Shown: positions 15,078 through 58,309 of the stretch, in pieces
How the letters are laid out: each line of letters opens with the position of its first letter
How positions within the stretch are numbered: the first letter of the stretch is position 1
Source of the DNA: Myxococcota bacterium
Lineage (GTDB): Bacteria; Myxococcota; JACRCW01
DNA length: 64,000 nucleotides
Direction of reading: 5' to 3'
Assembly: GCA_040752415.1 (NCBI GenBank)
Contig: JBFMGU010000016.1
Span: forward strand, 1-64,000
Program-made: the position numbers and the translations under genes
The notes under the pieces: generated by a model
Databases searched by the model: none
What the model saw: the letters and a program-made list of their open reading frames with translations, nothing else
What the model was told of the DNA's origin: nothing

Positions 15078-15093
15078 TGGCACGCGCTCTGCT
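15078..15093 (+). promoter_or_regulatory. Sigma54-type -24/-12 promoter candidate for the PAD gene
   Basis: TGGCACGcgctCTGCT, with GG-N10-GC spacing, ending about 20-25 bp before ATG 15112/15118. Confidence 0.55.
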
Positions 15094-15117
15094 TCGCTCA
15101 CGGCCACAGGGATGCCC

Positions 15118-18251: not shown

Positions 18252-18322
18252 GCGCCAGCAGCGTCCCGGCCCATGGTGGAGCTGTCAAGAGAGCCGGCGT
18301 CGGGTATGGCTGGCGCCGACCG

Positions 18323-20920: not shown

Positions 20921-20933
20921 CGGGCGGCAGCGT

Positions 20934-23069
20934 TCAACCGCGTCGACGCACCCGTCGGAGCCCAAGCACCACGGCGAACGCGAGGTACAGCGCGCTCTCG
21001 CCGACGTCGCTGCGAGCGGTTTCACACGCGCACACGGGCTGAGCGGGGTCTTCGGGGTCGGGGCCGGGCGGGGTGCTGGTGCCGCCGTCCTCGGTGGAGA
21101 CACCGCCCGCGTCCGCGCGGCCTGCGTCACGACGACCAGCATCCGGGCGGACACCCGCGTCTTCACGCACGGCAGCGTCGGGAACGTTGGCATCCGGCGT
21201 CACCGCGCCGTCGGGAGGGGTGGCGGCATCGGGCACGCTGGCGTCGGTGCCGGGCTGGCCAGCGTCAGCTTCGGGCGTTGCAGCGTCGGTGCCGGGAATC
21301 GCGGCGTCCGTCGTCACGCCTGCATCTCCAACGACGACACCAGCGTCGAAGATCTCCACACCCGCGTCGGACCCAGGCGTGCCTGCGTCGGGCTCCGGCG
21401 GAACCGTGGCATCGATGCCGGGCGAAGCGTCGACGACAATCGCGGCGTCGGAAACCGCCTGACCTGCATCAAGGGCAACCGCGCCGTCGACGGGAATGCC
21501 GGCATCCACGGGGGAACCCGCGTCGGGCGGCGGCGGAACCTCCTCGAGTAGCAACTCGAATGCACCACGCGCGTTCTCCGGCGAGGTGACCTGCAGGATC
21601 AGTGTACGCGCCGAAGTGTCCGATGCGATGAGCAGCGTCTCCGGCTGGCCCGCCAGCTGCGCATCCACCGCCATCATGCATGCACCGGCGCACCCGTCGT
21701 CGTGAAGGACGATCTGGACGTTGGCACTGCCCGTCGGCGTCACGGTGACCCGGTATTCCATCCCGGGTGCCAGTGAGATGCGGTAGAACAGGTCCGGCCC
21801 CGCCCAGTCCGACGAGCCCGTGCAGCTTGCCAGCGTCTCCGTGCTGTCGATCGCGGATGCCAGGTCTCCGCTCGTCGTCGACGCGACGGTGACGTCCTCC
21901 GGCGTGTTGCACACCATGCCCGGCACCACGTCGACGCAGCTTCCCACCGAGCACACACCGGCGCCGCCATTGCACGTCGTTCCAATCGGTGACGTCGTGT
22001 ACTGGCAGCCGGCGCTCGGGTCGCAGCTGTCCGCGGAACAGGGATCCCCGTCATCGCAGCTCACCGTCACCGGCGGGTCCGTGGACGTGACGCACTCCAG
22101 CGCGGTCAGGTCCGACGTGTACTCGTAACGACCCGAAAGCTCGCACACGCTCGTTCCCGTCGGAGCGCACGGAAGACCGTGGTTGTCGAAGCCCTCGTCG
22201 GTGGTGCCGTTGCAGTCGTCATCCAGGGTGTTGCCGCCGAGCTCGGGCGAGGTCGGTGTGATGATCGGTGCGTCGCACAGCGGCTGCAGCGTGTTGACGT
22301 CGCACGTCGTGAACCCGCTGTCCGTGCAAACGCCAAGGCCGTTGGTACAGCCCGTGGCAATCCCCGGAATTCCCGCGCACGCCGACGGAATCACGCTCAC
22401 CACGAAACGCACCGTCGTCTCCATTGGCGGAAGACCGGCGAGGACCTCAATGACCTGGCGGCCAACCACAGCGTCCGTGGCCTGGAACGTCACCACCCCG
22501 GTGAACGGATGCACGCTGGCTCCCGACGGCATCTGCAGCGGGGAGAACTCAATGGCCAGGTCCCCACCCACGCTGCTGCTCGGTGCGGAAATGAGCGTCT
22601 CGCCGTTCCACGCCACCGTTTCCAGCTGCACCGTGAGCGTCTGACCCGCGATGATGACCTGGTTGTCGACGGGGAAGATCGTGATGTACGCGCCCGGCCG
22701 GTGCGCCAGGTCCAACCGACGCACACTGCCCTTGCTGAGCGGAACACCACTCTCGACGGGATCGTCATTCACCGTGATGCGCAGCGGGTCGGTGATCGCC
22801 GGACCGGTCACACCGTCACCGGCGGGCACGTCCAGCACGTAGTAGTCACCGCGCGTGCCCAGCGTCATCGAGGCAACTTCGACTTCACCGTTGGGACCGC
22901 GCCACAGCGCTTTTACCGTCGTGTTCGTGAACTCCGGGTCCACTTGGGTGAGCACCACGCCGTCGCGGACCACGTTGCCGAAGAGGCGGAACGGTGTGTC
23001 CGGTCGCGTCTGCGCCAGTGCCGCGGAGGTGAGCAGAAGGCTCGCAAGCGTTGCATGCATGGCTTTCAT
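20934..23069 (-). CDS. MYXO-CTERM-anchored Cys-rich surface protein (last gene of the RHS operon)
   Basis: Signal peptide; Ig-like segment; DDDCNGTTDEG and CDDGDPCSADSCD Cys repeats; long DAG/PDA linker; C-terminal CAC + TM + RRVRRRG. Start ATG 23069 overlaps the upstream TGA (TGATG). Confidence 0.85.
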   Translation of the reverse strand: MKAMHATLASLLLTSAALAQTRPDTPFRLFGNVVRDGVVLTQVDPEFTNTTVKALWRGPNGEVEVASMTLGTRGDYYVLDVPAGDGVTGPAITDPLRITVNDDPVESGVPLSKGSVRRLDLAHRPGAYITIFPVDNQVIIAGQTLTVQLETVAWNGETLISAPSSSVGGDLAIEFSPLQMPSGASVHPFTGVVTFQATDAVVGRQVIEVLAGLPPMETTVRFVVSVIPSACAGIPGIATGCTNGLGVCTDSGFTTCDVNTLQPLCDAPIITPTSPELGGNTLDDDCNGTTDEGFDNHGLPCAPTGTSVCELSGRYEYTSDLTALECVTSTDPPVTVSCDDGDPCSADSCDPSAGCQYTTSPIGTTCNGGAGVCSVGSCVDVVPGMVCNTPEDVTVASTTSGDLASAIDSTETLASCTGSSDWAGPDLFYRISLAPGMEYRVTVTPTGSANVQIVLHDDGCAGACMMAVDAQLAGQPETLLIASDTSARTLILQVTSPENARGAFELLLEEVPPPPDAGSPVDAGIPVDGAVALDAGQAVSDAAIVVDASPGIDATVPPEPDAGTPGSDAGVEIFDAGVVVGDAGVTTDAAIPGTDAATPEADAGQPGTDASVPDAATPPDGAVTPDANVPDAAVREDAGVRPDAGRRDAGRADAGGVSTEDGGTSTPPGPDPEDPAQPVCACETARSDVGESALYLAFAVVLGLRRVRRRG

Positions 23070-24322
23070 CACCACCCCCGCTCCGTGGACATGTAGACGT
23101 AGTACGCGCGGCCGGGCTCGATGCTGCCGAGGTCATTCACTTCCGCGGGAACACCGGGCTTGTAACAGCGCCAGGTCTGCGTGGCCTCGTCATAGCCCCA
23201 CACCGCACGCACCGAGCCCGTCATCGGGTCCACGATGTCTTGCACCAACCGCGAATCGAGGTCGCGATATCCGACGATGTTCCAGCCCGGTAGCAACCGG
23301 ATCTCATCCACCGCCCAACCGCCTTCAACCGTGATGGTGGCCGGCGCGGTGGCGAGGACGAAGTAGCCCTGGTTCACGTTGATGGTCGTGAGCGTGCCGG
23401 TGTTGGCGACGAGGTCCCGGTAGACCCACTGGCCATTCACCTGCGTCCACACCTCGGTGACGTCGGGTGCGGCGGCGGCGAAGACGGTTTCCACACTGCG
23501 GTCCGACGGCTCCACCTGGAATGCGACGAGATTCCAACCGGGATTGAGCGTCACCTGCTGCGAGAACGGCTCCAGCGTGGTGGCCACGCCATCAACGACC
23601 GCGGGGAGCTTCCACGCGCGCGTCCTGACGTCGTCATGCGCGGCAATGGTCTGCAGGCGGACCGTTTCACCGCCGTTGATGCGCAGGGACTCATGCGTCT
23701 GCGACGAGAACACGTTGCTCAGGTCCACCCCCGCCACGCCGCCCCGTGAACCATCACCCACGTACACGCTGACGGGCGCCGCGCCCCCCTCGACGTCCGC
23801 GAGGACCACCGCCCCAGCGGGAGCGGGCGTCCCACGAGCCGCGGAGTCATGGAGGAGGAACGGGCTCTTCGTCGGCGCGCGCGTGTTGTCCGCGGTCTGG
23901 ACACGTTCAATGCGGGTTTCGGTCGTCGCGGAGAGGTACGGCGGGTTTTGCGGGAGGATGCTGACGGAGCCGGTGGCGTCGGAGGTGGCGCGCAGCTGGT
24001 AGTAGTACGTCGTGGTGGGGCTGAGGCCGGTCACGCGCAGCTTCCATACGCCGGCGGTGCGCGCGGGTTCCTGCAGGATGTCCGGGAGCGGCATCACGTC
24101 AACCTGCGCGGAACCAGCGGAGGCAAGCCCGCGGTCATCCAGGAAGATGCGCAGTTCCGGTGTGATGCGCTGGTCCGTGGTGAAGATGACGGAGAATGCG
24201 CTGGGCGTGACGTCGGAAACGCGGACGTTGCCGAGCGCTGGCGGCGCGGCCTGCGCGTACGACGTCCACGCGATCAGCATTCCGGTGGTCAGCCATGTTG
24301 CTCGTGCAAATGACATCATCAT
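23069..24322 (-). CDS. Secreted fibronectin type III protein with C-terminal LxxGWNL module
   Basis: Signal peptide ending AQA; FN3 (VRVSDVTPSAFSVIF...VTGLSPTTTYYYQL); LNPGWNLVAF and LLPGWNIVGY repeats. Start at the MMM run (24322-24316) after GAGG. Confidence 0.8.
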   Translation of the reverse strand: MMMSFARATWLTTGMLIAWTSYAQAAPPALGNVRVSDVTPSAFSVIFTTDQRITPELRIFLDDRGLASAGSAQVDVMPLPDILQEPARTAGVWKLRVTGLSPTTTYYYQLRATSDATGSVSILPQNPPYLSATTETRIERVQTADNTRAPTKSPFLLHDSAARGTPAPAGAVVLADVEGGAAPVSVYVGDGSRGGVAGVDLSNVFSSQTHESLRINGGETVRLQTIAAHDDVRTRAWKLPAVVDGVATTLEPFSQQVTLNPGWNLVAFQVEPSDRSVETVFAAAAPDVTEVWTQVNGQWVYRDLVANTGTLTTINVNQGYFVLATAPATITVEGGWAVDEIRLLPGWNIVGYRDLDSRLVQDIVDPMTGSVRAVWGYDEATQTWRCYKPGVPAEVNDLGSIEPGRAYYVYMSTERGW

Positions 24323-24332
24323 CCACCTCGTC

Positions 24333-25094
24333 TCACTGCCCGGTTCCGCAGCCGGGGCACTTCTCGGGAGGAGGCAAGCTGCTGCGCGCCTGCTTCCACA
24401 TCCGCCACGCTTCCACGCCGCCCTCCAACCAGAAGACCGCGGGCCCAACCTTCTGCTCTCGCAAGCGCGCCGCTTCCTCCGCCACACCGCGCCCCGTTGC
24501 GTTCACGACGACAACCGGCGTCCGCCACGTCACTTCCTTCGCCTTCGGCGCTGTCTTCGTCACGCGCGGCTTCGTCTGCGCACTCTTCAATGCCGTCGCC
24601 ATCTCCCCGTCGAGGTCCAGGATGACGGGTGTGACTTCCTTGCACCGCAGCAGTGCTTCCAGCTCCCGCGCGGTCAGCGCACCCGGCTCCATCACCGGGG
24701 ACGTGCTCTGGCGCATGCTGGGATCCTGCTGCTCCTCGACGGGCTGACCGGCCGCCACCCATGCTTCCATGCCGCCTTCCAGGACGCGCACGCGGGTGAA
24801 TCCATCCGCGCGCATGCGCTCAGCAAGCTCCATGGCGGGACACGGGTTGCCCTGTCCGTACAGGAGGACCACGTCGTGGCGCTTCAGGAAGGCGCGGTGG
24901 CGCGCTTCGGTGCCGGGCATGTGCAGCGACTCACGGATGTGGCCGCGGTTGAAATCGACATCGTCACGCGTGTCGATGACGCGCAGGTCATGGGCGGAAT
25001 CCTTGAGTTTCTCAGCCAGCGCGCTGGGGTCAATCCAGCCCTCATTCGGGCTCGCGACCGCGGCAAGCAAAAGGAGACCGACGTGCAAAGGCAT
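24333..25094 (-). CDS. Exported tandem rhodanese-like protein lacking the canonical catalytic Cys
   Basis: VIDTRDDVDFNRGHI...LEGGMEAW and a second LEGGVEAW; N-terminal hydrophobic stretch; C-terminal CPGC; ATG 25094 overlaps the upstream TGA (TGATG). Confidence 0.8.
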   Translation of the reverse strand: MPLHVGLLLLAAVASPNEGWIDPSALAEKLKDSAHDLRVIDTRDDVDFNRGHIRESLHMPGTEARHRAFLKRHDVVLLYGQGNPCPAMELAERMRADGFTRVRVLEGGMEAWVAAGQPVEEQQDPSMRQSTSPVMEPGALTARELEALLRCKEVTPVILDLDGEMATALKSAQTKPRVTKTAPKAKEVTWRTPVVVVNATGRGVAEEAARLREQKVGPAVFWLEGGVEAWRMWKQARSSLPPPEKCPGCGTGQ

Positions 25095-28000
25095 CACGGC
25101 CTCCATCCCGCGACGGGTTGAGCCATGGTCACCCACAGGCCTTCACCGCTGCGCAGATTGAAGTTCGGTCCCAGCAACTCCGCGTTGTTCACAGCGGCGG
25201 TCTCAAACGCGCCCGTCCGACGGTTGAACCGCTGCAGCGACACCACGTTTGCCTCACCCAACGACGACACCACGTCCCACGCCCGCAAACCGTACGGGAA
25301 ACTCGCCAACCCGAGGCCATTGGCCCCAGCAACGAGGTCCACCGCAGGCCGCGGTCCCAACCCATCCACTTCCAGGATGCCCTCTCCGTCGGATTCCACC
25401 ACCAGCGTCTGATTGCCTTCGAGCGGGAAGTCGTCGCCCATGGGGGAACCATTCTCGATCCACGCGCTCTTGAACGTCTGCAGGGACGAATCCAGTTGCC
25501 GCACACCGACGACACCGAATTGCTGTTGCCACGCCGTCAGCAGCGCATGCGCGGTGAGATGCTCGAGAGCAACACTCTCGGGGAGGGCCAGCAGGTTGTA
25601 ACCCTGACGGAAGGCGAGCGTGAGGTCGGGCAGAGTGACCTCGGACCATTTCACCTGCCAGAATCCGTCGACGAGCTCCTGCCACACCAACTTGTCGCCG
25701 TGGACGCGGGCGTGGCGTTGGTCGGAAGCGTTGCGTTCCCAGTTCGTGCCGGTTCCCGCGAGCGGGTCGCCGACGAGAAGGTCACCCTGCGCTTCCGCGC
25801 CTGTCGCAATGGCGACGTAGCGGCCGTCGATCGCGTCCGGATCGTTGACCAGGTCGGAACCGTACGTGAGACGGGTGACGCGCTGGGTGCTGCGGTCATA
25901 CGCGTACAGCGTCTCACCGCCGTGACGGTTGTCCACCCAGACAATCACCTCATTGGTCACCACCGGGTTCAGCTGGTCACTCTCGGGAAGGACGGTGATG
26001 CGCGTTTCCGTCGTCGTCGACAGGTCCATGGCGTAGACCTCCGCGCGACCGTGACGGTAGTCCTCCCAGACCACGCTGCTGCCCGCGGCTCGCGGCTTCA
26101 CCTGGTCACGCTCGTGACTGGTCACCTGCGTCGTCGTGCCGGTGGTGAGGCTGTAGGCGTAGATGTCGATGTTCCCGTTGATGTTGCTCTCATAGACGAG
26201 CCAATCGTCGGACAGCGACGGATTCGTCTGGTCGCCCGGCTGTGCCAGCACCGTCGTCGCCAAGGTGAGACGGTCGTGGATGACGACGTCCAGGTCGCCG
26301 TTGCGGTTGTCCACCCAGGCAATGTGCTCGGTGGAAATCACCGGTGACGTCTGGTCCGAGGCGAAAGGCGCGATGAACGTGGCGCTTCCGCTCAGCACGT
26401 CCTCGTGACGAATCTGCCAGCGGCCGGTTCGATCGTCGGCCCAAACGACGTCGTCACCGTGGATGGACGGGCTCTGCTGGTTCGCGCTGGCCAGCGGGTC
26501 CACCGGCTCACTCTGGCGCGCGGCCTTCACCTGCACCGTGAACACCGGCGAAATGCGCTCATGCGCGGGACGGTCTTCCGTCGCCACCTGGTCGTAGATG
26601 CCATCGCGGAAGGTCACATGCACCGAATACGTGCCGGGGGCCACCAGACCACCAAAGTCATCCCGACCGTCCCAGGTGACCGCGCTGGTCGTGCCCGGCG
26701 TCGCAATCCCAGTGCGGTGCGCCACGACGGGAAGTCCGCTGAACTCACCCGTTCCCGCCGCGATCTCCAGCTGCGCGTAGACCGGGCCGCAGACATCATC
26801 CACGCGGTAACTGAGCCGAGTCGTGTTGCTTGCCAGCGCCTCGTCTTCGCCGGGAGTAAATTGCGGCGGGTCGGCATAGACGGTCTGAACAATGGGCGGG
26901 TTGTCGTCGACGATCACATCCAGGAAGCGTGGGGGTTCGTCGTTACCGGCCAGGTCGCGGCCGTAGTAGTGGATGCGGTGCTGGCCTTCCGTCACGCTGG
27001 GCCGCAGCTCGAAGCGGAACGGGTTGATCGCCGCGAAGTAGGCGCCCAAGTCCGACGCATTCCCGTCGATCTGCATGAACAGGTTCGGCACCGGCCCTTC
27101 CGCATCCTGCGCGACGAAGATGTGGTTGGTCTTCCTCGTCACACACACCGGCGTTCCGGTCAGCGTCTTCGGCTCCGCAACCTCGATGCGCGTCTCCGGC
27201 GGGCTGAAGTCCGGCACCGGCACCATCTCGTACGTCACCGTGTACGCGCCCGTGGACTCGATATCGAACAGGTTCAGTCCGTAGCGATAACTGTGCGTGG
27301 CCGGGATGTACTCCTTGCTCAGCCACACGTTCGCCTCGTTGATGACCTTCCCGTCGGAGCGCGTGGCGCCGACGAGGCGACGCGTACCCGCCATCGGGTC
27401 CGTCACTCGGATGTAGCTTGGTCCGCCGATGACCACGCTGGCCGTCAATGTGACATGGGGATTGTCCACCGTCGGAGAGCGGTCCAACTGCGCGACGCCG
27501 GGTTGCCCTTCGCCATAGGAAAGGACCACGGTCTCGACGTTGTCCGACTCGTACACGATGAGGTCGGTGCTCGGAGTGTTGGTCACCGTGGCGAGGAAGT
27601 CCTTCACCGTGTCGCGACCGGGGAGGTCCACGAGCACGTCGTGGATGAGGTAGTGGGCGTTGGTGGCCTCAATGAGGCTGGTGAGCTCGCCGCCCAGGTT
27701 GTCGTCGTGAGTGAAGCTGACGTTGAACTCGATGAAGCGGCCCGAGAGCGTGGACACCATGATCCACCGCGCATTGCGCGCCTCGTCGTTGGGCAGGTCA
27801 CCGAAGTCTGCCAGCAGCGAGTTCTGGGTCGTCACGCCGCTCACTTCCGTGGCGAGGATGCGGAAATCCACGAGCAGACCGAGCTGGTTCTCGACGATGC
27901 GCGGCTGCGCGGATTGGATCTTGAGCTTACGCGCGGGTCCGTAGCCGTGGTTCTTCACACGCACACCGAGGGTGTAGGGCTCCGGCGCCTCCTGCTGCGG

Positions 28001-28534
28001 CGTGTACGGGTCGTCGCCGTTGACGTACTCGGGCTCGAAGTAGTCGAGGGTGAGCAGCGGCATGGGCTGCACGTTGATGGCGTCCGGCACCACCTCGACG
28101 GTCTGCGTCTTCCCCGCCACCGTGTACGTGAGTGTTGCACCGACGAGGAAGTTCGCTCCCGCGGGCGTGGTTCCACCGGCGCCGAAGGAAGGAATCATCA
28201 GCCAATGGATGTCGGCCTTCCCGTTGGCGGCGACGGAGCCGCTGCCGTCGGGTGCGCCGCTGAGTCCTTCCTGGCTGTCCAGGCGGATGAAGAACTCGTT
28301 ACCGCGGTTGGCGCCGGTCTCGTCGGCAACCGAGATGTCCACGCGGATTCCGCTGATGGATTCCGCGAGCCCGTTGGTGATCTCCATCCGCGCGTCAAAG
28401 GCCTGACGTTCGAACGTGACCTCCTGCAGGATCTCGATCTTCACGGATGCACACGTGGCCCGCGCCGTCGACGCATCCAACAGCGTCAGCGCCGTCAACG
28501 TGAATCCCAGAGCAGCTTTGGTCATCGCTTTCAT
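25094..28534 (-). CDS. Large secreted multidomain protein (conserved N-domain, Ig/FlgD-like domains, TolB-like beta-propeller repeats)
   Basis: Signal peptide MKAMTKAALGFTLTALTLLDASTARA; N-domain CASVKIEILQEVTFERQAFDA; WDGRDDFGGLVAPGTY (FlgD-like); repeats Q..P.I....VW.D.R.G..DI; C-terminal GYNLLALP module. Confidence 0.85.
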   Translation of the reverse strand: MKAMTKAALGFTLTALTLLDASTARATCASVKIEILQEVTFERQAFDARMEITNGLAESISGIRVDISVADETGANRGNEFFIRLDSQEGLSGAPDGSGSVAANGKADIHWLMIPSFGAGGTTPAGANFLVGATLTYTVAGKTQTVEVVPDAINVQPMPLLTLDYFEPEYVNGDDPYTPQQEAPEPYTLGVRVKNHGYGPARKLKIQSAQPRIVENQLGLLVDFRILATEVSGVTTQNSLLADFGDLPNDEARNARWIMVSTLSGRFIEFNVSFTHDDNLGGELTSLIEATNAHYLIHDVLVDLPGRDTVKDFLATVTNTPSTDLIVYESDNVETVVLSYGEGQPGVAQLDRSPTVDNPHVTLTASVVIGGPSYIRVTDPMAGTRRLVGATRSDGKVINEANVWLSKEYIPATHSYRYGLNLFDIESTGAYTVTYEMVPVPDFSPPETRIEVAEPKTLTGTPVCVTRKTNHIFVAQDAEGPVPNLFMQIDGNASDLGAYFAAINPFRFELRPSVTEGQHRIHYYGRDLAGNDEPPRFLDVIVDDNPPIVQTVYADPPQFTPGEDEALASNTTRLSYRVDDVCGPVYAQLEIAAGTGEFSGLPVVAHRTGIATPGTTSAVTWDGRDDFGGLVAPGTYSVHVTFRDGIYDQVATEDRPAHERISPVFTVQVKAARQSEPVDPLASANQQSPSIHGDDVVWADDRTGRWQIRHEDVLSGSATFIAPFASDQTSPVISTEHIAWVDNRNGDLDVVIHDRLTLATTVLAQPGDQTNPSLSDDWLVYESNINGNIDIYAYSLTTGTTTQVTSHERDQVKPRAAGSSVVWEDYRHGRAEVYAMDLSTTTETRITVLPESDQLNPVVTNEVIVWVDNRHGGETLYAYDRSTQRVTRLTYGSDLVNDPDAIDGRYVAIATGAEAQGDLLVGDPLAGTGTNWERNASDQRHARVHGDKLVWQELVDGFWQVKWSEVTLPDLTLAFRQGYNLLALPESVALEHLTAHALLTAWQQQFGVVGVRQLDSSLQTFKSAWIENGSPMGDDFPLEGNQTLVVESDGEGILEVDGLGPRPAVDLVAGANGLGLASFPYGLRAWDVVSSLGEANVVSLQRFNRRTGAFETAAVNNAELLGPNFNLRSGEGLWVTMAQPVAGWRP

Positions 28535-28544
28535 GCCTGCCCTC

Positions 28545-29456
28545 TCAATCGATGGTGGTCTGGGTTTCCACCGCCACGGGTCCACCCTCCGGACCCGCAC
28601 CCGGCACCACGACGGCAAAACGGTGTCTGCCCAACAACGGCGCCTCCACCGTTTCTTCATTCAGCTCCAGCGCCACGTACCCCGCGGTCTGGACGTCAAA
28701 CCGCTTGTTCTGGCTGTCGACCAGGCGCCACCGCTCGCCGTCATGGAACTCGGCCCACGTGTGGTAGTTCTGGTTGCGACACGGCCCTTCACAGAAATAG
28801 CCGCTCACCCGTCGTGACGGGACACCCGCGGCGCGCGCCAACGCCACGAACAACGAGCTGTACTCCGAGCAATCACCGCTCTGGTTCTGCAGCGCGTAGA
28901 GCGCGCCCCGCTCCGTGGTGTCGTAACCGCCTTCCCGCACGTGCCCGGCCACGAACTCATGGATCGCGCGCGCCGTGGCGAGCACGTTGTCCTTCTTCAG
29001 CTCCTTGGCGCGTGCCACCACGTCGGGATGCGTGGCTTCCACGACGGGCGATGGCCGCAGGAAATCCTCCGCGTCAACGCTGGCAACCTGCGCCTCCGCC
29101 GCCTGCATGACGTCAAAGTCCACGCGAACCAGCTTGGTCCCGTACGGCGGCAGCTCGACGACAACCTGCGCCATGCCCTTCTGCAGCAGTGCGGGATGAC
29201 TGAATTCCACGGACTTGAGCGCCTGGTACGAGGTCTCCTGCACCGGCACGTAGACCCACAGCGAAGCGCCCGGGATGGGCGTCCCGGTGGTGTTGCGCAG
29301 GGTGTACGTGCTCCGCAGCTGGCGGAGCGTGGTGAACCCAGGCGGCACGTCGTCGAACGTGAACCGGGTGGCCGGCTCCGGGCGCGAGCATGCCACCGCC
29401 GTCACCAGTGGCAGCATCAACGACATGGCGTTCCGAAACATCAATTTCATCGTCAT
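28545..29456 (-). CDS. Transglutaminase-like (Cys-His-Asp) lipoprotein
   Basis: GDCSEYSSLFVALARAAGVPSRRVSG, YHTWAEF, WRLVDS; lipobox AVAC; ATG overlaps the RHS stop codon (TGATG at 29458-29454). Confidence 0.9.
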   Translation of the reverse strand: MTMKLMFRNAMSLMLPLVTAVACSRPEPATRFTFDDVPPGFTTLRQLRSTYTLRNTTGTPIPGASLWVYVPVQETSYQALKSVEFSHPALLQKGMAQVVVELPPYGTKLVRVDFDVMQAAEAQVASVDAEDFLRPSPVVEATHPDVVARAKELKKDNVLATARAIHEFVAGHVREGGYDTTERGALYALQNQSGDCSEYSSLFVALARAAGVPSRRVSGYFCEGPCRNQNYHTWAEFHDGERWRLVDSQNKRFDVQTAGYVALELNEETVEAPLLGRHRFAVVVPGAGPEGGPVAVETQTTID

Positions 29457-38400: not shown

Positions 38401-41400
38401 CTTCGCGCAGCGAGACGTTGTCGACGGTGAACACGCCATCGACCGACGGCGCCGTTCCCGCGACCTGGCCGTTGAGCAGCACGGTCACCGTCGTGCCCAC
38501 CTCGGCGGAGCCCGTGACACTAATGGGGTCCGCGGTCAGGAAGATCTGTCCGTCATACGGCGCGTTGAATGACGGTGGCGACGGAGAGCGCAGCCGGACC
38601 TCGATGGTGAACACCTGCTCCGCAACGTTCCCGGGAGCGTCGAACACGCGGAACAACAGCGCGTGCGGACCATCCGCCACGGAAGAAGGCTCCACCGTGC
38701 CAGCAAACGGCGGCGTCGGGTCGACGTCCATGGGCAGCCCATCCAGCAGGAACTCCGTGCGCCCGAGTCCGGAGTTGTCAAACGCATCCAGCGCCACGGT
38801 GGACGCGGCCTCCACCAGCGCACCGTCGACGAGCGGCTGGCCATTGAGGCGGAAGTTGCTGGTGGTGGGCGGTGTGATGTCGCCGCGCGGCGTGACCTGG
38901 ATGGTGGTCACCTGCTTGTTTTCACCGCCGGAAACGTTCACCGCCGTCACCGCCACAAAGTACGTGGTCCCGTTCTGCATTCCCCCGACGATGACGTTGT
39001 TGGTGGAGACCACGTTGTCGACCGCGGGCGACATCGCGGTGACGTCGGTGAAGTCCACCGTGTCGCGGTAGATGCGGTACTTCGAGACCAGCGTGTTGTC
39101 CCCCACCGGCGTCCAGGAGAGGAATGCCCGCAGATCGTCAGGCGTGGCGCGCACGTCGCTGGGGTTGTTGAGCAGCGTGACGCCGTTGATGGTGACGCCG
39201 GTGCTGACGTTGGCGGGGTCACGGTTGTCGACCGTCTGCACGCGGATGGTGTGACGCGCATGCGACGCCAGTCCGGTGGCCTGGTAGGTCAGCGTGGCCG
39301 GGCCCACGTCGGACGGCGTGCCGCCGTTGATGCTCACGCGGTAAACGGCCAGGTCGCCGCGACGGTTCAGGCTCGCGTTCCACGCGATATCCAGCGTATC
39401 CGTCCCCACCGACGTCACGCGCAGGCCGGTGACCTCCTCGGGCGCCACGGTGTCACGGGGGATGCCGGACACCACGTTCTGCGGAGACACCACCGTGCGG
39501 TACGCACCTTCACGACTCACCGCGACCACGGCGAGATACACGACCTGGTCGGGAACCAGCCCGGTCACCGTCACACTCTTCTGGCCCGCGCCGGGCGTGG
39601 CCTTCACGGTTGCGTCGGCAACGTTGGTGAACGGCGCACTGGCGGCGTAGACGCGGTAGTAGCCCACGTTCCCGTGTCCCTGCGTCTGCTCGTCGTACGC
39701 GTTCCAGCTGAGCTGCACGGTGGTGCCGTCGCCGTTCTCGTTGAGGACGGGCGTGACCTCGTCGGGCATGAACGTGGGACGGGAGAAGACGCGCACCGGC
39801 GCGCTGATGTTCCCGTCGGCATCCCGCACCGCCACACCGAACTCGTACAACTGGCCCGCGGTCAGCCCGCCGACCTCGAGGCTGCCCTGCGTGCGGCTCA
39901 GGCCCAGCACGAAAGGCGTCTGCGAGAAGTCGGTGATGGCGTCGGGTGCGTAATAGACCACGTACGCGTTGAAGTCCGGGTCGGTGACGATGTTCCACGT
40001 CAACCGCACCTTCTCGACATCCGCGTGCGCCTGCACGCCCGTGAGCGTGCTGGGCTGCAGGATGTCCGCGGGGATCGCGGCGGCGGTGACCACGTCGTCA
40101 AGCTCGTTTCCGCGCCAGTCCACGGCGGTCACCGCCACGTAGACGGGAACGCCGTTCTGCAACCCGGTGAGACGGAAGCTGGTGGCGCCGGACACCGCGG
40201 CAACCGGCGTGAGCGCAGCGACGGAGGTGTAGTCGGAGAGCTGGTAGTAGACGTTGTAGTGGTCCAACCCCAGGTCCATGCTCGGCTGCCAGGAGAGGTC
40301 CAGGAACGTGTCTCCCACGACGAGCGTGAGCCCCAGCACCGGGTCCGGCGGCACCGCGTCCAGCGAGGGCGTGGCGGTGACCTCGACGGACGGCGCGCTC
40401 AACAGGCCCTGCGTGTCGACGGTCACCACCCGGTACGCGTAGGTGACGTCGTTGGTGAGCCCCGCGTTGCGATGGCTGGTACCCGTGAGGTTGCTGGCCA
40501 CGGTCACCCATCCGCCGCTCGGCATGACCCGTCGCTCCACGCGGTAGGTGGCGCGGTCACAATGCGTGGCGTGCGTCCAGGACACGGTGGCCTCGGAGTC
40601 ACCCGCGACGACGCTGACATTGGTCACGGCGTCCGGCGGTCCCGCCTGCGGCACGCGGATGCTGCGCTCGTCGACGGTGGCGCTCTCATTGCCGGCCTTG
40701 TCCACCGCACTCACCGACGTGAAATACGTCTGGCAGTCGACCAGCCCCGTGACATCCGCCTCGTTGGTGTTCCCGGCTTCCAGCACCTGCGTGTAGCTGT
40801 GTGAGACGGTGCCGGTGTGCACGCGGTAGCGGTCCACGTCGGGCTGCGGCGCCAGCACCCAGCGGACGCGGTAGCCCCCGTCGATGCCGGTCACCGTGGA
40901 GATGTTGACGCTGCTGGGCGGGTTGAGGTCCGCGGGGAAGTTCACCGTGACGGAGCTGCCGAGCGCCACACCGTCCACCTCCGCCGTCACCGTCGCCACG
41001 GCGGGAGAAGCCGGTGCCTGCAGGCGTTGCTGGTACTGGCCCAGCCCGGTGTACGCGGGGACACTGAGGAGCGTGCCGAAGTCGGTGGTGAACACCACGT
41101 TGTGGCCTGGCCCCACGAAGTTCCCGTAGGCGTCGCGCAGCACCACGTAGATGGTTGTCTCGCTGGTGCCGTCGGCGGGGATGGAGGGGTTGGTGGCGGC
41201 GAACACCGCCTGCCCGAGGTCGGGGGCGGCGGGATCCACGTCCACCTGGGTGCTGCCGCGCAGGTCGGGATTCACCGTGTCCACGACGGAAATCACGATG
41301 CTCCCCGCCTGCAGCAGCGAGAGCCCGGTGAACGTCTTCTGGCCCAGGTCCTCCGGCGCGAACGCGGTGTCCGCGGGCAACGTGGCGTCCGGGTCCGTCG

Positions 41401-44400
41401 ACGTGAAATGCACGGTTCCGGCGTAAGCGGTGTCCACGGCGCCATTGGAGAGCTTGGAGGTCACGGTGACGTCGAACGCGGTGCCCGCCACCACCGGCGT
41501 CGCCGGCCCCACCACGTCAAACCCCGCCGCCACGCCCAGCCGGTAGTGCCGCAGGATCTCTTCCGACGACAGCGCGCGGTTGTAGATGGCCACCTCGTCG
41601 TAGTCGCCGGGCAGGAACCCGTAGGAGCCGCTGCCCACCATGGAGGGCGCGGTCACGTTGGCGCGTCCCGACGTGACTCCGGTGCGCACGAGCTGTCCGT
41701 TGAGGAAGATGGACGGCTGCTTGTCGACGTAGACCACCGCCACGTGCGCGAACGTGGAGCCCGCTGGGAAGACCGTTCCGTCGTACACCGCCATGGCGGG
41801 CATGTAGTTGTCGCCGTGCTCGTAGACGGAGATGCCGTTGGTGCCCAGCGAGATGCCCGCGCCCGCGTTCGAAGCGCCGCCGTGGTTGGGATAGAAGAGC
41901 CATCGCTGACCGCTGGTGCCGGGGTTGCCCGCGGTGCTTCCCTCGACGTCGATCTCATGCGTCTGCGTGGTGCTGACCCACGCCTCGATGGTGAAGGTGT
42001 TGGCGGGAATCCGGGACAGGTAGTCGCCGGCGGACGTCAGTGTGCCCGCGCTGCCGCTGCTGCCAATGGCGGTGGCCAGGTTTCCATCGGTGGTGGCGCC
42101 CACGCGGTTGCGGGAGAAGGTGCCGCTGAGGAACGCGTCGCTGCGCAACGGTGCCAGCGTGTTGGGATCCACGGCGTTGGCGCTGTCATACACGGTGGCG
42201 CCGTTGGTCTCGTCCAGGCGGTAGAACACCAGCGGCCCGTCGGCACGGATGCGCGCGGCGTAGGAGCTGTTCGCCAACGGGTCCGCCTGGAACTGCACGG
42301 TGACCGCCGTGGCCAACGCCACACCGTCGACGGAAGCGCTCACCACCGCGTCCGCGGGAGAGACCGGCGCGCGCAGCAGCTGCTCGTAGACGCGGCCCTC
42401 CTCCACGTACACCACGTTGCCCACCAGGCTTCCTGCCGTCGTGGAGAAGACCACGTTTCGTCCCGGTTGCAGCAGGTTCCCGTACGCGTCCTGCGGAATG
42501 GCGAACACGCGCACCAGGGTGGAGCCGTCGGCGGGGACCTGCGTCTCGTCGGCGGAGAGCAGCGTCACCTCGGCGCTGACGGGACCCGGGTCCACCTGCT
42601 GCTCGTAGACACCGTCCAGGTCCGCGTTCGCCGTGTCCGTGACCCGCACGGTGTTCACGCCCACCCGGGTGAAGGTGAAGGCGTTGGTGAAGGTGCGCTG
42701 GCCCAGGTCGGGCGGACCGAAGGTGACGTCGGCAGGAAGCGTGACGCCTTGGTTGGGGCTGGTGAAGTGCACGGTGCCCGCGTACCCGGTGTTCACCGTT
42801 CCGTCGGCGTTCCGTGCCGTCACGGTGAGGCTGAACGGCTCACCCGCGGTGATCGCCGTCGTGGGGCCCGCCACGTCAAACTCGTTGGCGCGCCGACTGG
42901 CCCACCGCACCGCGTCGACGACGAGGCGCTGCACATTCGGGTCGGAGAACTGGGTGTTCCCGCCGTAGTTGCCCGCGAGCTGCAGCCCCACCACGCGACC
43001 GCTGCCGAACTCGCGCACCGCCAACGCGGCCTGCCCGGACTGGTTGGTCAGCAGCACCGTCACGGGATTGGCGCCGAAGGTATGCGCCTGCGTGTGGCAC
43101 CAGTGCCCGGTGAAGGAGAACGACGACGCCACGTTGTCCAGGATGGGATGGCTCGCCTGGGACGGCACGTCGTTGAAGGTCACCGTCCCGCCGCTGTTGG
43201 TGCCGCCCGGGCAGTCGAACACGATGAGGTCCCGCATGGTGTTCATGCGCCCATTGGCCAGCTCATACGCGTTGAACTCCGTGCCCACGTACGCGCCACC
43301 ATCCTGGACGAACTGCACCAGCGCGCTCTGCCCGGCGGTGTTCATCTGGGTGGCGTAGGAGATGCCGTTGAGGTGCACCACCGCGTCGTATCCGGCCAGC
43401 GGTGGGTTGGTCCCGTCGTAGGACTCCTCCGGGTTGGGCGTGCGGTTCACCACGAACTCCGCCGCTTCCAGCGCTGCAATCAGGGAGAGCGTGGAAGCGC
43501 TGACGTTGTCGTAGATGACCAGCACGCGCGGTACATCCTCGTCGCACACGTTGCCCACGCCGTCGCCATCCAGGTCGGCCTGGTTGGTGTTGACCACCGC
43601 GGGGCAGTTGTCGGTGGCGTCGGGAACTCCGTCTCCGTCGGTGTCGCCCGCCAGCGGCACGCGCGCGGCCCAGTTGATGGCGTTCATCATCAGGCGCTGC
43701 ATGGGCGCCTGGGAGAGGATGTTGCTGCTGTTGTAGTTGGCGTTGTGGTTGAAGTGCACGGCGCGGCCCGCGCCCACGTCGCGGATGGCCAGCGCGTCGT
43801 TGCCCTGCTGGTCGCGCATCAGGATGGGCGGGACGTCGGTGACGAAGTCATGGAAGCGCGTGAGGCACCAGCCGCTGTTGGGGAACGCCACCGGGGAGGG
43901 CACGTTGGCCAGGATGGGATGCGCGGACATTCCCGGCACGTCGGTCAGCGTCAGCGTTCCAAAGTTGTTGCTGCCACCCGGGCAGTCCATGAGGATGAGG
44001 TCGCGCATCGTCGTCATGCGCCCGTTGGCAAGCTCGTAGGCGTTGAACTCCGTGCCCACGTAGGCGCCGCCCAGGTTCACGTAGTCGACGAGGGCCTGCT
44101 GGCCCACCACGTTCATCTGCGTGGCGTAGGAAAGGCCGTTGACGTGCACCACGGCGTCAAACAGCGACGGTGCCGGCGAGCCCGCGTACGACTCCTCCTG
44201 CCCGTAGTAGGTGACCGCAAACCCCTCGTCCTCCATGGCGCGGATGAAGCTCAGCGTGTCGCCGTCGTACTGGTCGTAGATGAAGAGGACCTGCAGCGCG
44301 TCGGGGTCGCAAGCGTTGCCCACGCCGTCGCCGTCGTTGTCCAGCTGGTTGGTGTTGGGCACGGCGGGACAGTTGTCCACGTTGTCCAGGATGCCGTCGC

Positions 44401-46660
44401 TGTCGACGTCACCGGCGCTGGTCACCTTGGCGGTCCAGCGGATGGCGTTGAGGGTGAGCTGAAGGATGTCCGGGTCCGTCAGCTCCGTGCCGCCGTTGTA
44501 GTTGCCGTTGTGATGGAACCCCACCACGCGGCCTTGCCCGTACTCGCGCACCGCAATGGCGTCCCGCCCCGCGGTGTCCCGCGCCAACGCCACGGCGGGC
44601 TGGGTGGCAAACTGCTTGAGCCGCGTGTCCACGAAACCGCCGTAGTACTGGTAGGGCATGGGCACGCCTGAGAGCACCGGGTGGGCCTCCATCCCAGCAA
44701 TGGCGTCGACGGTGATGGTGGTGAAGCCGTTGTTGGTGTCGGGCTGGAACAGGATGAGCTCCGTCATGGAGAGCATCCGGTTGCTGCCGTTCTCGTAGGT
44801 GTTGAACTCCGTGCCAATGAAGCCACCACCGTTCTGCACGTACTGCGTGAGCGCGGTCTGGCCTGCCACCGGCATCTGCGTGGCGTAGGTGGTGCCGTTG
44901 AGGTGCATCACCACGTCGTAGGCGCTGGGCGCGGGGTTGGTGCCGTCGTAGCCGGTCTCCACGGTGTTGCTGAGGAAGACGTCCACGCCCTGCGCCTCCA
45001 GCCACGCAATCATCCCGTACGTGCTCGACGAGAGCGTGTCCCAGATGAGCAACAGGCGCAGCGTGTCCGCGTCGCAGACGTTGCCCTGCCCGTCACCGTC
45101 GGTGTCCATCTGGGTGACGTTGGGATCGGTGGGACAGTTGTCGTTGACGTCGGGAACACCGTCCTGGTCGGTGTCGCCGGGACGCGGGACGGCGCTGCCC
45201 CAGATGGCGGCGTTGTAATAGAGCTGCTGCAGGTTGGCGTTGCTGAGCGCGCCCACGCTGGCATACCCGCCCGCGGTGTTGAGGCCCACCACGCGCCCCG
45301 CCCCCACGTGCTTCACGACGACAGCCGGGCTTCCCTCCTGGTCCCGCGCCAGCACGGTGGGCTGGTGGTCCAGGTAGCGACGGATGCGCGTGCGCGACCA
45401 GTACGACGTGACACTGAAGCTCGACGGCACGCCATCCAGCACCGGGTGCGCGGCGGCGGAGGAATCCACGGTCACCGTCCACGTTCCGCCGGTGTTGCTG
45501 GAATGCTCCAGCAGGATGAGCGGCAACATGCTCAGCATCCGGTTGTTGTCCACCTCGTAGCCGTTGAACTCTCCACCCGCGTAGCTGCCGCCGTTCTGCA
45601 CGTACTGCGTGAGCGCGGTCTGGCCCGCCGTTGGCATCTGCGTGGAGTAGGTGACGCCGTTGAGATGGATGACGCTGTCAAACCCGTCGGGCGCGGGGTT
45701 GGTCCCGTCGTAGGCGTTCTCCGCGGTGGAGCTCAGCGTCACGTGCAGCCCGCGGTCCTCCAGCGACTGCACCAGGTTCAGCGTCTCCGCCTGCAGCGAG
45801 TCCCAGATGACCAGCACGCGCGGCGTGTCGGCGTCGCAGGCGTTGCCGGTCCCGTCGCCATCCAGGTCCTGCTGCGCGGGGTTGTGCAGGGAGGGACAGT
45901 TGTCGCTGACGTCGGGGATGCCGTCCTGGTCGCTGTCGCCGGACGCGGGCTGGCGCGTGCTCCAATTGACTGCGTTGACGTACAGCCGCTGCACGTCGAC
46001 GTTGGAGAGCATGGCGTAGGTGGAATAGTTGGACGCCAGGTTGAAGTGCACCGCGCGCCCCAGGCCGAACTCCCGCACCGCGGCGGCGGCGGAGCCCTCG
46101 TGGTCGCGCATCAGCGCCACGGCGGGCTGGGTGTCAAAGTGGCGGACGCGGGCGCGGCTCCAGTAGGCGTTGAGCGAGAAGGAGCTGGGCACGCCGCTCA
46201 GCAGCGGGTGCGAGGAGAACTGCGCAATGTGCGAGAGCGTGTACGTGCCGCCCGTGTTGCTCCCGGAATAGGCCAGCGGCATCAGGTCGACCATGCTCAG
46301 CATGCGGTTGTTGTCGACCTCGAAGGCGTTGAACTCGCTGCCCACGTAGCCGCCACCGTTCTGGACAAAGTTCACCAGCGCGGTCTGACCGGCCACCGGC
46401 ATCTGCGTGGCGGAGGTCTGCCCGTTGAGGTGCACCACGGCGTCAAAGCCATCCGTGGCCGGGTTGGTCCCGTTCCAGCCGGTCTCCGACGTGGCGCTCA
46501 ACGTCACCGTCATGCCCGCGGCCTCCAGCGCCGTGCGCAGCGACGTCAGGTGCGTGTTGTTCTGGTCCCAGATCAGCAGGACGTTGGGCGCGGCCTGCGC
46601 GCCTGCGGGTGCCAGGACAAGACAAAGCCCCAGCGTCAGCCTTCGGATGGCCTTTTCCAC
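29456..46660 (-). CDS. Giant (~5,700 aa) secreted adhesin-RHS/YD-repeat protein
   Basis: GTG start at 46660 after GGGAG, then a signal peptide ending AQA; five ~210-aa GATase/ThuA-like repeats separated by TSP3-type DxDxDGxxDxxDNCP repeats; invasin-like Ig, LamG, many FN3 and Ig domains; YD repeats; RHS core [30 protein letters not shown]...[10 protein letters not shown]; ~160-aa Cys/Gly-rich tip. Confidence 0.93.
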   Translation of the reverse strand: [5734 protein letters not shown]

Positions 46661-46760
46661 GCGGACTCCCCTTGGAGGTGCTCCCCGGTTTGAGCGGGGG
46701 CGCAAGCTAGCACGGGGGTGGTGACGGGCGTTTGACGGCCATCACCCACGGAGCGTTTGG
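46384..46760 (-). repeat. Copy 1 of a ~370-bp direct repeat (promoter and 5' end of the giant RHS gene)
   Basis: Shares long blocks with 53382-53750, e.g. ccatccgtggccgggttggtc, ggtctccgacgtggc, ttccacgcggactccccttggag, tttgacggccatc. Confidence 0.9.
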
Positions 46761-46975
46761 GAAAAACCTGCGCGGTACGGGCACGGGGCTGCCCCCCAGG
46801 ACCAAGGCTGCCCATCCCCGCCGTGATCCGGCGAACCTACCCACTCGCTCCCCCAGCACTTCCCGCTGTGCCATGGCCACCCGCGCCCTACCCGGTGCCC
46901 CGCTGTCCTTGAACGGGAGCCGCTTGCCAGCTCCTGGTCATCACACAACGCCAATGATGCGCTAGGGTCCCGCGC

Positions 46976-48992: not shown

Positions 48993-48995
48993 GGC

Positions 48996-50728: not shown

Positions 50729-50729
50729 G

Positions 50730-58190: not shown

Positions 58191-58309
58191 CGTCGTCACG
58201 GGCATCATGAACCACCAACCGACCGAGCGCCCTGCCCCGCCGCGTGGGAAGGGGTGGCGAGGCGGCCCGACTCACGGCAAGCTGTCCCATCCCCTCTCGA
58301 GGTGAACAC

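Follow-up and report, generated by a model that had tools for sequence, protein, structure and literature searches.

A 64,000-nucleotide stretch of genomic DNA from a Myxococcota bacterium (hereafter the window; G+C content about 68%) contains six minus-strand open reading frames (ORFs), spanning positions 20934–46660, which form one operon and represent the local version of a widespread conserved cassette. Its likely role is to assemble giant adhesins or toxins and to present them on the surface of bacteria with two membranes. Its constant parts are a giant protein with a conserved stretch which we refer to as the mid module, a partner protein combining a conserved region (N-dom) with variable passenger domains, a pseudo-rhodanese with a CxxC motif, and a membrane-tethered periplasmic enzyme. 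The enzyme is usually a Cys hydrolase or transferase of the transglutaminase fold, sometimes an S13 DD-peptidase or DsbA. What varies is the giant's adhesin-type N-terminus, the Rhs cage (optional, with a polymorphic toxin tip), the small FN3 adaptors and the last gene, which encodes a scaffold or anchor protein. We regard it as highly probable that these genes constitute a conserved functional cassette, while display on the surface for contact-dependent action has about an even chance. For the combined statement, that the operon is a local version of the widespread cassette and follows the mechanism of assembly and display proposed below, we estimate a probability of roughly 0.6.

The six genes are tightly packed. 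Stop and start codons overlap as TGATG at three junctions (29456, GGTTGATGACG; 25094, CCGTGATGCC; 23069, GGTGATGAAA), and the remaining two show gaps of 10 nt (TGAGAGGGCAGGCATG) and 10–16 nt (TGAGACGAGGTGGATG), with the Shine-Dalgarno-like purine runs GAGGG and GAGGTGG ahead of them. These junction sequences agree with a preliminary description of the locus, which had reported six co-oriented genes with three TGATG overlaps and two gaps of about 10 bp. A consensus scan of positions 20700–30000 revealed neither a sigma-70-like promoter nor a minus-strand terminator-like site. The unit is flanked by a convergent HrpB-type helicase gene (18167–20920) and by divergent plus-strand genes from position 46976 onwards. 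For the giant, whose reading frame is open from 46705, the GTG codon at 46660 is a plausible start (AAGGGGAG upstream). All six products have Sec-type N-termini as judged by eye, matching the export signal that had been assigned to every product before; the signal of gene 4 is short and lacks a basic n-region, while relatives of gene 4 have clear signals. BLASTP detected no homology among the six products beyond a module common to genes 3 and 5. The domain order given in the preliminary description is confirmed by the Pfam and NCBIfam assignments except at its end, where the MYXO-CTERM match of gene 6 falls below threshold.

The giant encoded by gene 1 consists of a signal peptide, an adhesin-type N-terminal half, the mid module, the Rhs cage and a variable tip. 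Its part nearest the N-terminus is not conserved, and tblastn coverage in relatives starts at about residues 2300–2600. The variable adhesin-type part includes ThuA-like and thrombospondin type 3 repeats, which are underlain by the DNA repeat families D1–D3 with a spacing of about 765 nt. The mid module contains no Cys and is built from beta-sandwich domains; at its end lie a CarboxypepD_reg/TTR-like domain and an ASH/PapD-like one that is very well conserved. It is 27–36% identical over 1,400–1,900 residues in 20 or more loci, with the highest conservation at about residues 3100–3300 and 4050–4150, and is what characterizes the giant in every related locus. A sequence search of the PDB with the mid module gave one weak Fn3 match as sole hit and no solved relative.

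Gene 3 matches the beta-propeller repeats of TIGR04275 (156 bits) and, weakly, Ig domains; in a PDB sequence search with this protein, only TolB was found, for the propeller. N-dom begins with an invariant Cys immediately behind the signal peptide; it has no match in Pfam or NCBIfam. The predicted structure of N-dom (predicted local distance difference test, pLDDT, 85.5) comprises four tandem beta-sandwich domains. Fold searches with Foldseek against the PDB and with VIA-align gave only generic beta-sandwich, Ig, PapD-like and pilin matches (best Z score 9.2 over about 100 residues), and a search of the Protein Atlas (best value 0.82) yielded no usable lead. By sequence, N-dom is very common. 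Of the 8,000 candidates scored in a word-index search with residues 1–560 of gene 3, 761 proteins reached E ≤ 1e-3; the 120 of these that were listed are 39–65% identical over the query region and have very diverse C-terminal architectures. The source names among the matches listed include Geobacter, Desulfuromonas, Nitrospirae, Verrucomicrobia, Thiotrichaceae and Methylomonas. An exhaustive HMMER search returned 2,719, 2,317 and 1,706 representative clusters at E values of 1e-3, 1e-10 and 1e-30, respectively. N-dom is N-terminal in all but two (P0121, P0240) of the 150 representatives listed, and is the defining feature of the partner protein family. The family PF26549 was rejected as a description of N-dom, as this label is found on propeller-type orthologues and not on other N-dom proteins.

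Gene 4 matches PF00581 in two stretches (76 bits). The catalytic Cys, which in canonical rhodaneses sits in the active-site loop after the central beta-strand, is absent from all 37 aligned cassette rhodaneses, in line with the earlier designation of the protein as a pseudo-rhodanese; gene 4 is accordingly a predicted pseudo-enzyme. A C-terminal CxxC motif is conserved in the cassette rhodaneses (often CPTCP or CxxCG), its first Cys in 95% of them. In gene 4 it reads CPGC and lies at 24336–24350, a few residues from the C-terminus. The invariant Cys of N-dom is otherwise unpaired, and a thiol link to the CxxC motif is conceivable. A fusion of rhodanese and N-dom indicated by tblastn in one genome (G002, E value 2.4e-5) was not confirmed by Pfam at E values up to 1, and we made no use of it.

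Gene 2 contains a Transglut_core domain (PF01841, 72.2 bits) with an intact catalytic triad, Cys196-His232-Asp247, which is invariant in 40 sequences. An AlphaFold2 model (pLDDT 90.4) has an N-terminal beta-sandwich in addition to the core; its best fold match is 3ISR (E value 1.9e-15, TM-score 0.58–0.61), followed by TgpA. We therefore predict a catalytically intact periplasmic enzyme of the transglutaminase fold. A transglutaminase had been named in the preliminary description as well: the intact triad speaks for it, while in some loci the position is held by an S13 peptidase or DsbA. Gene 2 has a lipobox-like motif (AVAC). Lipoprotein status was rejected as a trait of the family, since such a motif is present in only nine of 47 relatives; many of the others have an N-terminal hydrophobic stretch which we read by eye, without counting, as a membrane anchor. 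A complex prediction for N-dom, the pseudo-rhodanese and the transglutaminase-fold protein (score 0.00, mark 0.32) speaks neither for nor against binding.

That these genes belong together is indicated by their recurrence. A scan with gene 3 over one genome per species revealed two full-length relatives, in a Thermodesulfobacteriota metagenome-assembled genome (MAG; locus L001) and a Geobacteraceae MAG (L002); eleven other matches were limited to the propeller. In both loci the giant is followed by one or more small genes, including an S13 peptidase or DsbA, then by the gene 3 orthologue and a rhodanese. L001 continues with a homologue of gene 5 and with an Ig protein of large size, while the contig of L002 ends after the rhodanese. 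The giants of both loci match residues 2300–4170, approximately, of the window giant and do not have the RHS part. N-dom was found in four of 401 sampled genomes of the phylum of the window, including the genome of the window itself, and in eight of 301 from the phylum of the Geobacteraceae MAG.

Thirteen genome loci were searched with the six window proteins and the neighbours from L001 and L002, and 42 ORFs were scanned against Pfam. Mid adjoins N-dom in 11 of the 13, the other two (G464, G547) being cut by contig ends, and 10 or 11 loci contain a rhodanese. The RHS cage occurs in seven loci (G217, G363, G451, G554, where it is found twice, both loci of G625, and G464); five complete giants (G401, G402, G684, G442, G002) are without RHS. 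Five loci have a Transglut_core gene (G217, G363, G625a, G625b, G547), three a gene 5 homologue and two an S13 peptidase. According to these counts, mid, N-dom and rhodanese form the constant core, RHS is optional and the enzyme position is variable. The preliminary description had seen the system as built around RHS; with the cage in seven of 13 genome loci, the conserved centre lies in mid and N-dom.

A scan of metagenomes with the N-dom alignment (A1) gave at least 489 relatives, of which the best 80 loci were kept; merging N-dom sequences at ≥95% nucleotide identity left 72 non-redundant loci. At least one partner was present in 65 of these (transglutaminase in 43, rhodanese in 34, RHS in 18, mid in 15). 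Directly upstream of N-dom, 38 of the 62 loci with at least 1 kb of upstream sequence have a transglutaminase gene on the same strand and 11 an RHS gene, 53 having either of the two. The transglutaminase-fold gene often overlaps the rhodanese gene. Six loci had no partner or gene 5 match; in five of them the sequence on one side or both is shorter than 5 kb, and the sixth (L123) shows none despite 10 kb on both sides. With the same queries and threshold, the 11-Mb genome of the window (520 contigs) contains matches at only two places for rhodanese, five for transglutaminase, three for mid and four for RHS. A background of two to five places per 11 Mb excludes chance adjacency of the cassette genes. 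Homologue and gene-neighbourhood checks, which the preliminary description had suggested, bear out that the helper genes and Rhs giants recur across genomes and phyla far beyond chance.

Plasmids carry the cassette as well; a tblastn search returned five plasmid records. On the mobilizable plasmid pFW12EY of Methylomonas koyamae, genes for a gene-5-like protein, an Ig protein, a cohesin protein, the giant, a rhodanese, a transglutaminase and an N-dom protein follow each other in one direction. The giant gene is 14 kb long and includes mid (35.5% identity over 1,597 residues) and RHS (29.5% over 1,139 residues). The megaplasmid of Eleftheria terrae carries genes for a TIG protein, a hypothetical protein, a mid-bearing Ig protein, an RHS protein, an ankyrin protein and an N-dom protein, followed by GspG, GspF, GspE, three hypothetical genes, a secretin, three prepilin-type genes, rhodanese and transglutaminase. 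Before the giant, the betaproteobacterium E. terrae (L141, 1–2979) and two 12-Mb genomes from the phylum of the window, G217 (L044, 3250–8372) and G363, have genes for a TIG-domain protein and a protein of about 500 residues without family match. The latter protein is 54–62% identical across phyla; this suggests that the cassette as a whole was recently transferred horizontally.

Mid and N-dom are also found within single chains. Plasmid alpha of Nostoc PCC 7120 (L142, 6910–22803) encodes a Calx-beta protein of 5,297 residues in which a match to the end of mid directly precedes N-dom; neither a rhodanese nor a transglutaminase was found near this locus. In P0121 (7,485 residues) the unit of mid end and N-dom occurs three times. 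On the Rosetta-stone principle, the fused chains suggest a single physical unit in which mid and N-dom work together.

Table 1. Position of the operon, its parts and neighbouring elements in the window.
Feature	Position	Strand	Basis or remarks
Gene 1, giant exported protein	29456–46660	−	About 5,734 residues from GTG 46660; reading frame open from 46705
Gene 1: five tandem repeats of about 255 residues, ThuA-like and thrombospondin type 3	42830–46590	−	Pfam ThuA 6e-30, TSP_3 1e-18
Gene 1: Invasin_D3/Big_1 domains, Laminin_G_3, fn3 array	38861–42829	−	Pfam
Gene 1: mid module, about 1,600 residues (about 2601–4200)	34061–38860	−	Conserved stretch of the giant
Gene 1: Cys-rich segment, DUF6531-like plug domain (below threshold), Gly-rich linker	33251–34060	−	Between mid and Rhs cage
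Gene 1: Rhs/YD-repeat cage and RHS-associated core, ending YIDPDG	29969–33250	−	Pfam, NCBIfam
Gene 1: C-terminal tip, 170 residues, Gly/Cys-rich, presumed encapsulated cargo	29459–29968	−	No family match
Gene 2, transglutaminase-fold enzyme, predicted to be membrane-tethered	28545–29456	−	Pfam Transglut_core
Gene 3, 1,146 residues	25094–28534	−	Signal peptide, N-dom, Ig-like domains, TolB-like beta-propeller, C-terminal docking-type module
Gene 3: N-dom, residues 28–435 (about 410)	27230–28453	−	Alignment A1
Gene 3: C-terminal module	25097–25657	−	Two PG-N-L repeats, ending GWxP (alignment A4)
Gene 4, periplasmic double rhodanese-homology protein	24333–25094	−	Pfam
Gene 5, FN3-type protein	23069–24322	−	Pur_ac_phosph_N-like N-terminal domain, middle region, C-terminal module as in gene 3
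Gene 6, exported Cys-rich protein	20934–23069	−	Cys-rich repeats (MopE/Dicty-type), Pro/Asp/Ala-rich linker, MYXO-CTERM-like end
Divergent intergenic region, presumed promoter region of both gene sets	46661–46975	.	
Type II secretion/type IV pilus-like set, possible accessory part	46976–53033	+	Yip1-like, three weak GspF-like, GspE ATPase, three prepilin-type genes
Degenerate second copy of the first 70 or so codons of the giant and about 70 bp upstream	53444–53718	−	About 80% identity; repeat families D4, D10

The cage of the giant is well defined. It matches RHS_repeat (PF05593, 1.7e-44) in 11 stretches, TIGR01643 (93.8 bits) and RHS (1.6e-10), and its core reaches 66.9 bits with TIGR03696 against a cut-off of 32.5. 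The core ends in a DPxG-type motif (RYIDPDGRGE), a candidate cleavage site. Ahead of the shell, DUF6531 (18.8 bits, cut-off 24.1) and CarboxypepD_reg (21.4 bits, cut-off 32.3) mark possible FN-plug and TTR domains, and only about 100 Gly-rich residues separate the plug from the first YD repeats. By sequence the cage is closest to Rhs proteins of type VI secretion systems (T6SS), with an E value of 6e-38 for PDB entry 8h8a compared with only 8e-4 for teneurin. No NHL domain was matched at E values up to 1 in residues 4200–5749, nor at E values up to 0.01 in the rest of the giant. The giant resembles T6SS-associated Rhs effectors (8h8a, 8qjb, 7q97 and Tse5, 8cp6; E values of 6e-38 to 1e-18 for cage and RHS core) also in its DPxG core and variable tip. 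It differs from them by its Sec signal and by 4,400 residues of adhesin-type domains that precede the cage; its N-terminus is not of the kind that binds PAAR or VgrG, and we saw no T6SS genes. In the scanned ORFs, which do not include all small ones, Pfam and NCBIfam revealed no match to PAAR, VgrG, Tc-type proteins, LXG proteins of the type VII secretion system (T7SS) or two-partner secretion proteins. For the T6SS and Tc partners this is what the preliminary description had stated.

The tip of the window giant was compared with the Protein Atlas, where the best value (0.90) fell on unnamed clusters and gave no usable lead. Among 20 tips from cassette loci, the first 25–40 residues or so are common and the rest is alike only between close kin; similarity extends beyond about the first 40 residues only in the pairs G217/G363, L068/L072 and L133/L135. 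Matches to named families occur in relatives: one to Ribonuclease (1.4e-10), one to Ntox10 (4e-42) and, in G217, one to PT-HINT. In the window, as had been noticed before, no immunity-like ORF comes directly downstream of the giant; its stop codon and the transglutaminase start codon overlap, which leaves no space for one. Small immunity-like ORFs follow the Rhs gene in several relatives, among them the ankyrin gene of E. terrae.

Genes 3 and 5 have homologous C-termini (hhalign probability 92%, E value 6e-7), forming a module of about 165 residues which occupies positions 23072–23635 in gene 5. The other matches of gene 5 are weak (Pur_ac_phosph_N 1.3e-3, fn3 0.031); a relative in L061 matches fn3 at 1.2e-5. 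Where window gene 5 ends in this gene-3-type module, relatives carry a dockerin-like tail (24.2 bits in L083; three further relatives reach 18.9, 15.0 and 14.2 bits). Cohesin is matched by the gene that follows or by one close by (with 31.7 bits in M. koyamae, 22.8 bits in L001 and 14.9 bits in G451), and in some relatives an Ig protein bearing cohesin stands at the position of gene 6. The N-dom protein of G625 has a dockerin-like tail, too.

From these data we propose a mechanism. Sec would carry all products across the inner membrane. The two large proteins may be joined through the mid module and N-dom, which would serve as a pair of matching handles. In the periplasm, the pseudo-rhodanese and the enzyme would mature, cross-link, trim or anchor the joint between mid and N-dom, or remodel the surrounding wall; the S13 DD-peptidase found at the same position in relatives would fit the latter idea. 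Docking modules, namely cohesin and dockerin in relatives and the GWxP-type module of genes 3 and 5 here, could hang further proteins on the surface scaffold. The finished structure would then present the adhesin domains and, in the window, the Rhs-caged Gly/Cys-rich payload of 170 residues for contact-dependent action on neighbouring cells. The sequences themselves show how the operon is built, which domains it encodes, that the set recurs, the state of the catalytic residues and the hypervariability of the tips; we infer binding, surface location, the outer-membrane route, the substrate of the enzyme and toxicity of the window tip. A surface assembly of several proteins had been put forward in the preliminary description; the cohesin and dockerin domains of relatives, the module common to genes 3 and 5 and the fusions of mid end and N-dom lend it indirect support.

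Several points weigh against this proposal. Binding, surface exposure and expression of the products are predictions from the gene sequences; a look-up of public sequencing runs for positions 22900–29700 listed none. A toxin role of the window tip is only putative, given that it has neither a family match nor an immunity gene. The models of N-dom and the transglutaminase gave generic fold matches and thus no functional clue. Several of the dockerin and cohesin matches lie under the Pfam cut-offs. Gene 6 and its anchor are not conserved but specific to this window, and there is no conserved outer-membrane route; genes of the type II secretion system (T2SS) are near only three of about 97 loci (the window, E. 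terrae and L134). Finally, the 80 metagenome loci are the best-scoring ones and not a random sample, many of them lie on short contigs, and the cassette itself supplied the partner queries.

The preliminary description had arranged the parts differently: gene 6 would tether the assembly to the outer membrane, genes 3–5 would bridge to the anchorless giant and the transglutaminase would cross-link or cleave it, in a teneurin-like apparatus centred on Rhs. The genome of the window does use MYXO-CTERM sorting, with 44 other proteins over the cut-off, which marks its source as a bacterium of the myxobacterial type, and gene 6 ends with a Cys motif, a transmembrane segment and an Arg-rich tail. The cohesin-like domain at the position of gene 6 in relatives, the dockerin-like tail in the gene before it, the common module of genes 3 and 5 and the intact transglutaminase triad also speak for this arrangement. 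However, the sorting tag of gene 6 reaches only 14.5 bits with TIGR03901 against a cut-off of 20 (E value 0.036, model positions 4–34 of 34). A gene 6 homologue was not found in any of the 80 metagenome loci, and the 13 genome loci gave one weak, Cys-rich match (G002). As gene 6 is not conserved and its tag is below threshold, the outer-membrane anchor proposed earlier is lineage-specific at best. A centre in Rhs is further contradicted by the five complete giants without RHS, and 'teneurin-like' holds only loosely, with no NHL propeller found and a cage closest to T6SS-type Rhs. We consider this arrangement rather unlikely.

Alternatively, the giant and the N-dom protein could be substrates of a dedicated T2SS-like machine: having folded in the periplasm, they would be pushed out through its secretin and then released or held on it by cohesin and dockerin, with mid and N-dom as secretion signals. 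In E. terrae a complete T2SS lies between the N-dom gene and the rhodanese–transglutaminase pair. The secretin of this set (L141, 25004–27385) has TPR, STN, Secretin_N and Secretin domains and a C-terminal cohesin, which would be a docking site on the outer-membrane channel. Beside the window giant, a divergent set similar to T2SS or type IV pilus genes (T2SSE 187.6 bits, N_methyl 24.4 bits, GspF matches below cut-off) includes GspE, GspF-like genes and three prepilins; it had been missed in the preliminary description. GspG and GspF are located near L134. Against a dedicated machine stands the low frequency of three in about 97 loci, which is close to chance adjacency. GspE-type matches occur at 13–14 places in the 11-Mb genome, so the adjacency in the window may be fortuitous. 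T2SS-type genes are missing from the 20 kb upstream in G217 and G363 and from the cassette on the M. koyamae plasmid, and the E. terrae secretin as query found no secretin in the window. The Rhs cage would also be wider than known secretin channels. Substrates of a dedicated T2SS are an unlikely explanation; we rejected the T2SS as a general component of the cassette and keep it as a lead for the export route.

A switch of the LapA/LapG type has some appeal. LapA is a giant repeat adhesin with a conserved N-terminal module which is exported by the type I secretion system (T1SS) and has no Sec signal; LapG is a periplasmic enzyme of the transglutaminase-like cysteine protease clan, family BTLCP. 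The cassette resembles the LapA–LapG–LapD system in having a giant repeat adhesin, a conserved N-terminal module and a periplasmic enzyme of this clan. By analogy, N-dom would retain the surface protein, the transglutaminase-fold protease would cut to release it, and the pseudo-rhodanese would regulate the protease. The transglutaminase-fold gene directly upstream of N-dom in 38 of 62 loci, often overlapping the rhodanese gene, would suit a switch, as would the N-terminal location of N-dom in nearly all 150 representatives listed and the intact triad of a membrane-tethered enzyme. In contrast to LapA, however, all proteins here have Sec-type signals, and no LapD, LapE or T1SS genes were seen. 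The enzyme belongs to a family other than BTLCP: it matches Transglut_core, 3ISR and TgpA, a LapG-type structure not being among the matches listed. Moreover, an S13 peptidase or DsbA can take its place. Taken together, a Lap-like switch seems quite unlikely.

The giant might also be an ordinary bacterial teneurin-like protein (TLP), with neighbours that are unrelated passengers. Bacterial TLPs have been described as toxins with a YD shell that are exported by Sec, carry adhesins at the N-terminus and have an immunity gene downstream, and are defined by FN-plug, NHL and YD (Raoelijaona et al., Nat Commun 2026, PMC13018210). They are reported from Myxococcota and Thermodesulfobacteriota with variable adhesion domains, TTR, plug and polymorphic C-terminus (PMC13018210). 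The giant shares with TLPs a Sec-type signal, a variable adhesin N-terminus, possible TTR-type and DUF6531 plug domains (both weak matches), the YD/Rhs shell and a polymorphic C-terminal payload. It differs in lacking an NHL match and an immunity gene, the stop codon overlapping the next start, and in possessing the mid module of 1,600 residues; by sequence its cage is far closer to T6SS-type Rhs (6e-38) than to teneurin (8e-4). The neighbours are conserved partners, and the cassette exists without a YD shell as well. The giant is embedded in a conserved set of N-dom protein, pseudo-rhodanese and transglutaminase-fold enzyme; the text and searchable supplements of the TLP article (one scanned PDF is unsearchable) do not refer to this set and mention neither rhodanese nor transglutaminase. 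An ordinary TLP among passengers is improbable.

The co-occurrence counts refute a chance cluster of unrelated surface-protein genes, for which one might cite the many large exported repeat proteins encoded in this genome: the partners recur in two phyla, two proteobacterial plasmids and 65 of 72 metagenome loci as opposed to two to five places per 11 Mb. Translational coupling of the genes likewise speaks against chance.

The conserved display cassette was compared with further known systems. Zhang et al. (2012, PMC3482391) described RHS toxins of the Sec/T2SS class, some with an N-terminal inactive transglutaminase domain. The cassette agrees with these toxins in signal peptide, RHS filament, variable tips and the association of the transglutaminase fold with RHS toxins and Ig domains. 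The transglutaminase fold is here a separate protein, catalytically intact according to its sequence and membrane-tethered. Rhodanese is not mentioned within the first 300,000 characters of PMC3482391. Relatives of the cassette with dockerin-like tails and cohesin domains are reminiscent of the cellulosome; in contrast to the latter, the carriers have two membranes and glycoside hydrolases play no part, and the window has a different, unnamed module in place of dockerin. A search of the full-text literature, which did not extend to subscription-only papers, revealed no description of the gene set, nor did the closest papers, in agreement with the earlier statement that no characterized system has this composition. 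The article PMC13274458 was rejected as a description of the set, because rhodanese, transglutaminase and rhs are unrelated rows of a mutation table there. Sec-dependent Rhs or giant-adhesin loci with the new conserved accessory set are thus apparently undescribed.

Rhs proteins are among the commonest toxin carriers of bacteria, and many of them have a Sec signal and no T6SS or Tc partners. For the question of how these reach and act on target cells, the cassette offers a defined and testable helper set: N-dom (about 1,700–2,700 representative clusters), the pseudo-rhodanese and the transglutaminase-fold enzyme. Cultivable carriers are available in M. koyamae, with the cassette on a plasmid, and in E. 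terrae. The cassettes without Rhs may point to a general display system for giant surface proteins in bacteria of sediment and soil. Its occurrence on plasmids suggests that whole units for adhesin or toxin display move between phyla. More tentatively, with the odds somewhat against it, the cassette might be a categorically new system: an unrecognized envelope machine, modular and horizontally mobile, the scaffold of which assembles and displays giant adhesins and Rhs-caged polymorphic toxins. If so, this would be a new route for trafficking and presentation of Rhs toxins which is independent of the T6SS, Tc, T7SS and type V secretion systems and has its own secretin in some lineages.

Some other features of the window deserve mention. 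The 5′ end of the giant gene is duplicated: the copies at 46449–46728 and 53444–53718 have the same orientation, are 7 kb apart and bracket the T2SS-like genes. The duplicate may be what is left of a second giant gene, or else the trace of an insertion. At 15070–16935 (plus strand), a protein of 622 residues matches animal-type protein-arginine deiminase (PAD 1.7e-81, PAD_M 4e-5), an enzyme which is unusual in bacteria. A subtilase with FG-GAP repeats (1,320 residues) is encoded at 598–4557 (plus strand); it contains the best MYXO-CTERM match of the genome (4459–4554, 39.3 bits), and a second FG-GAP protein is located at 5393–6790. Two plus-strand genes without clear function encode a Kelch-repeat protein of 944 residues (58244–61075) and a Ser-rich protein of 594 residues (61169–62950), the latter with three internal repeats of about 140 residues (repeat family D11).

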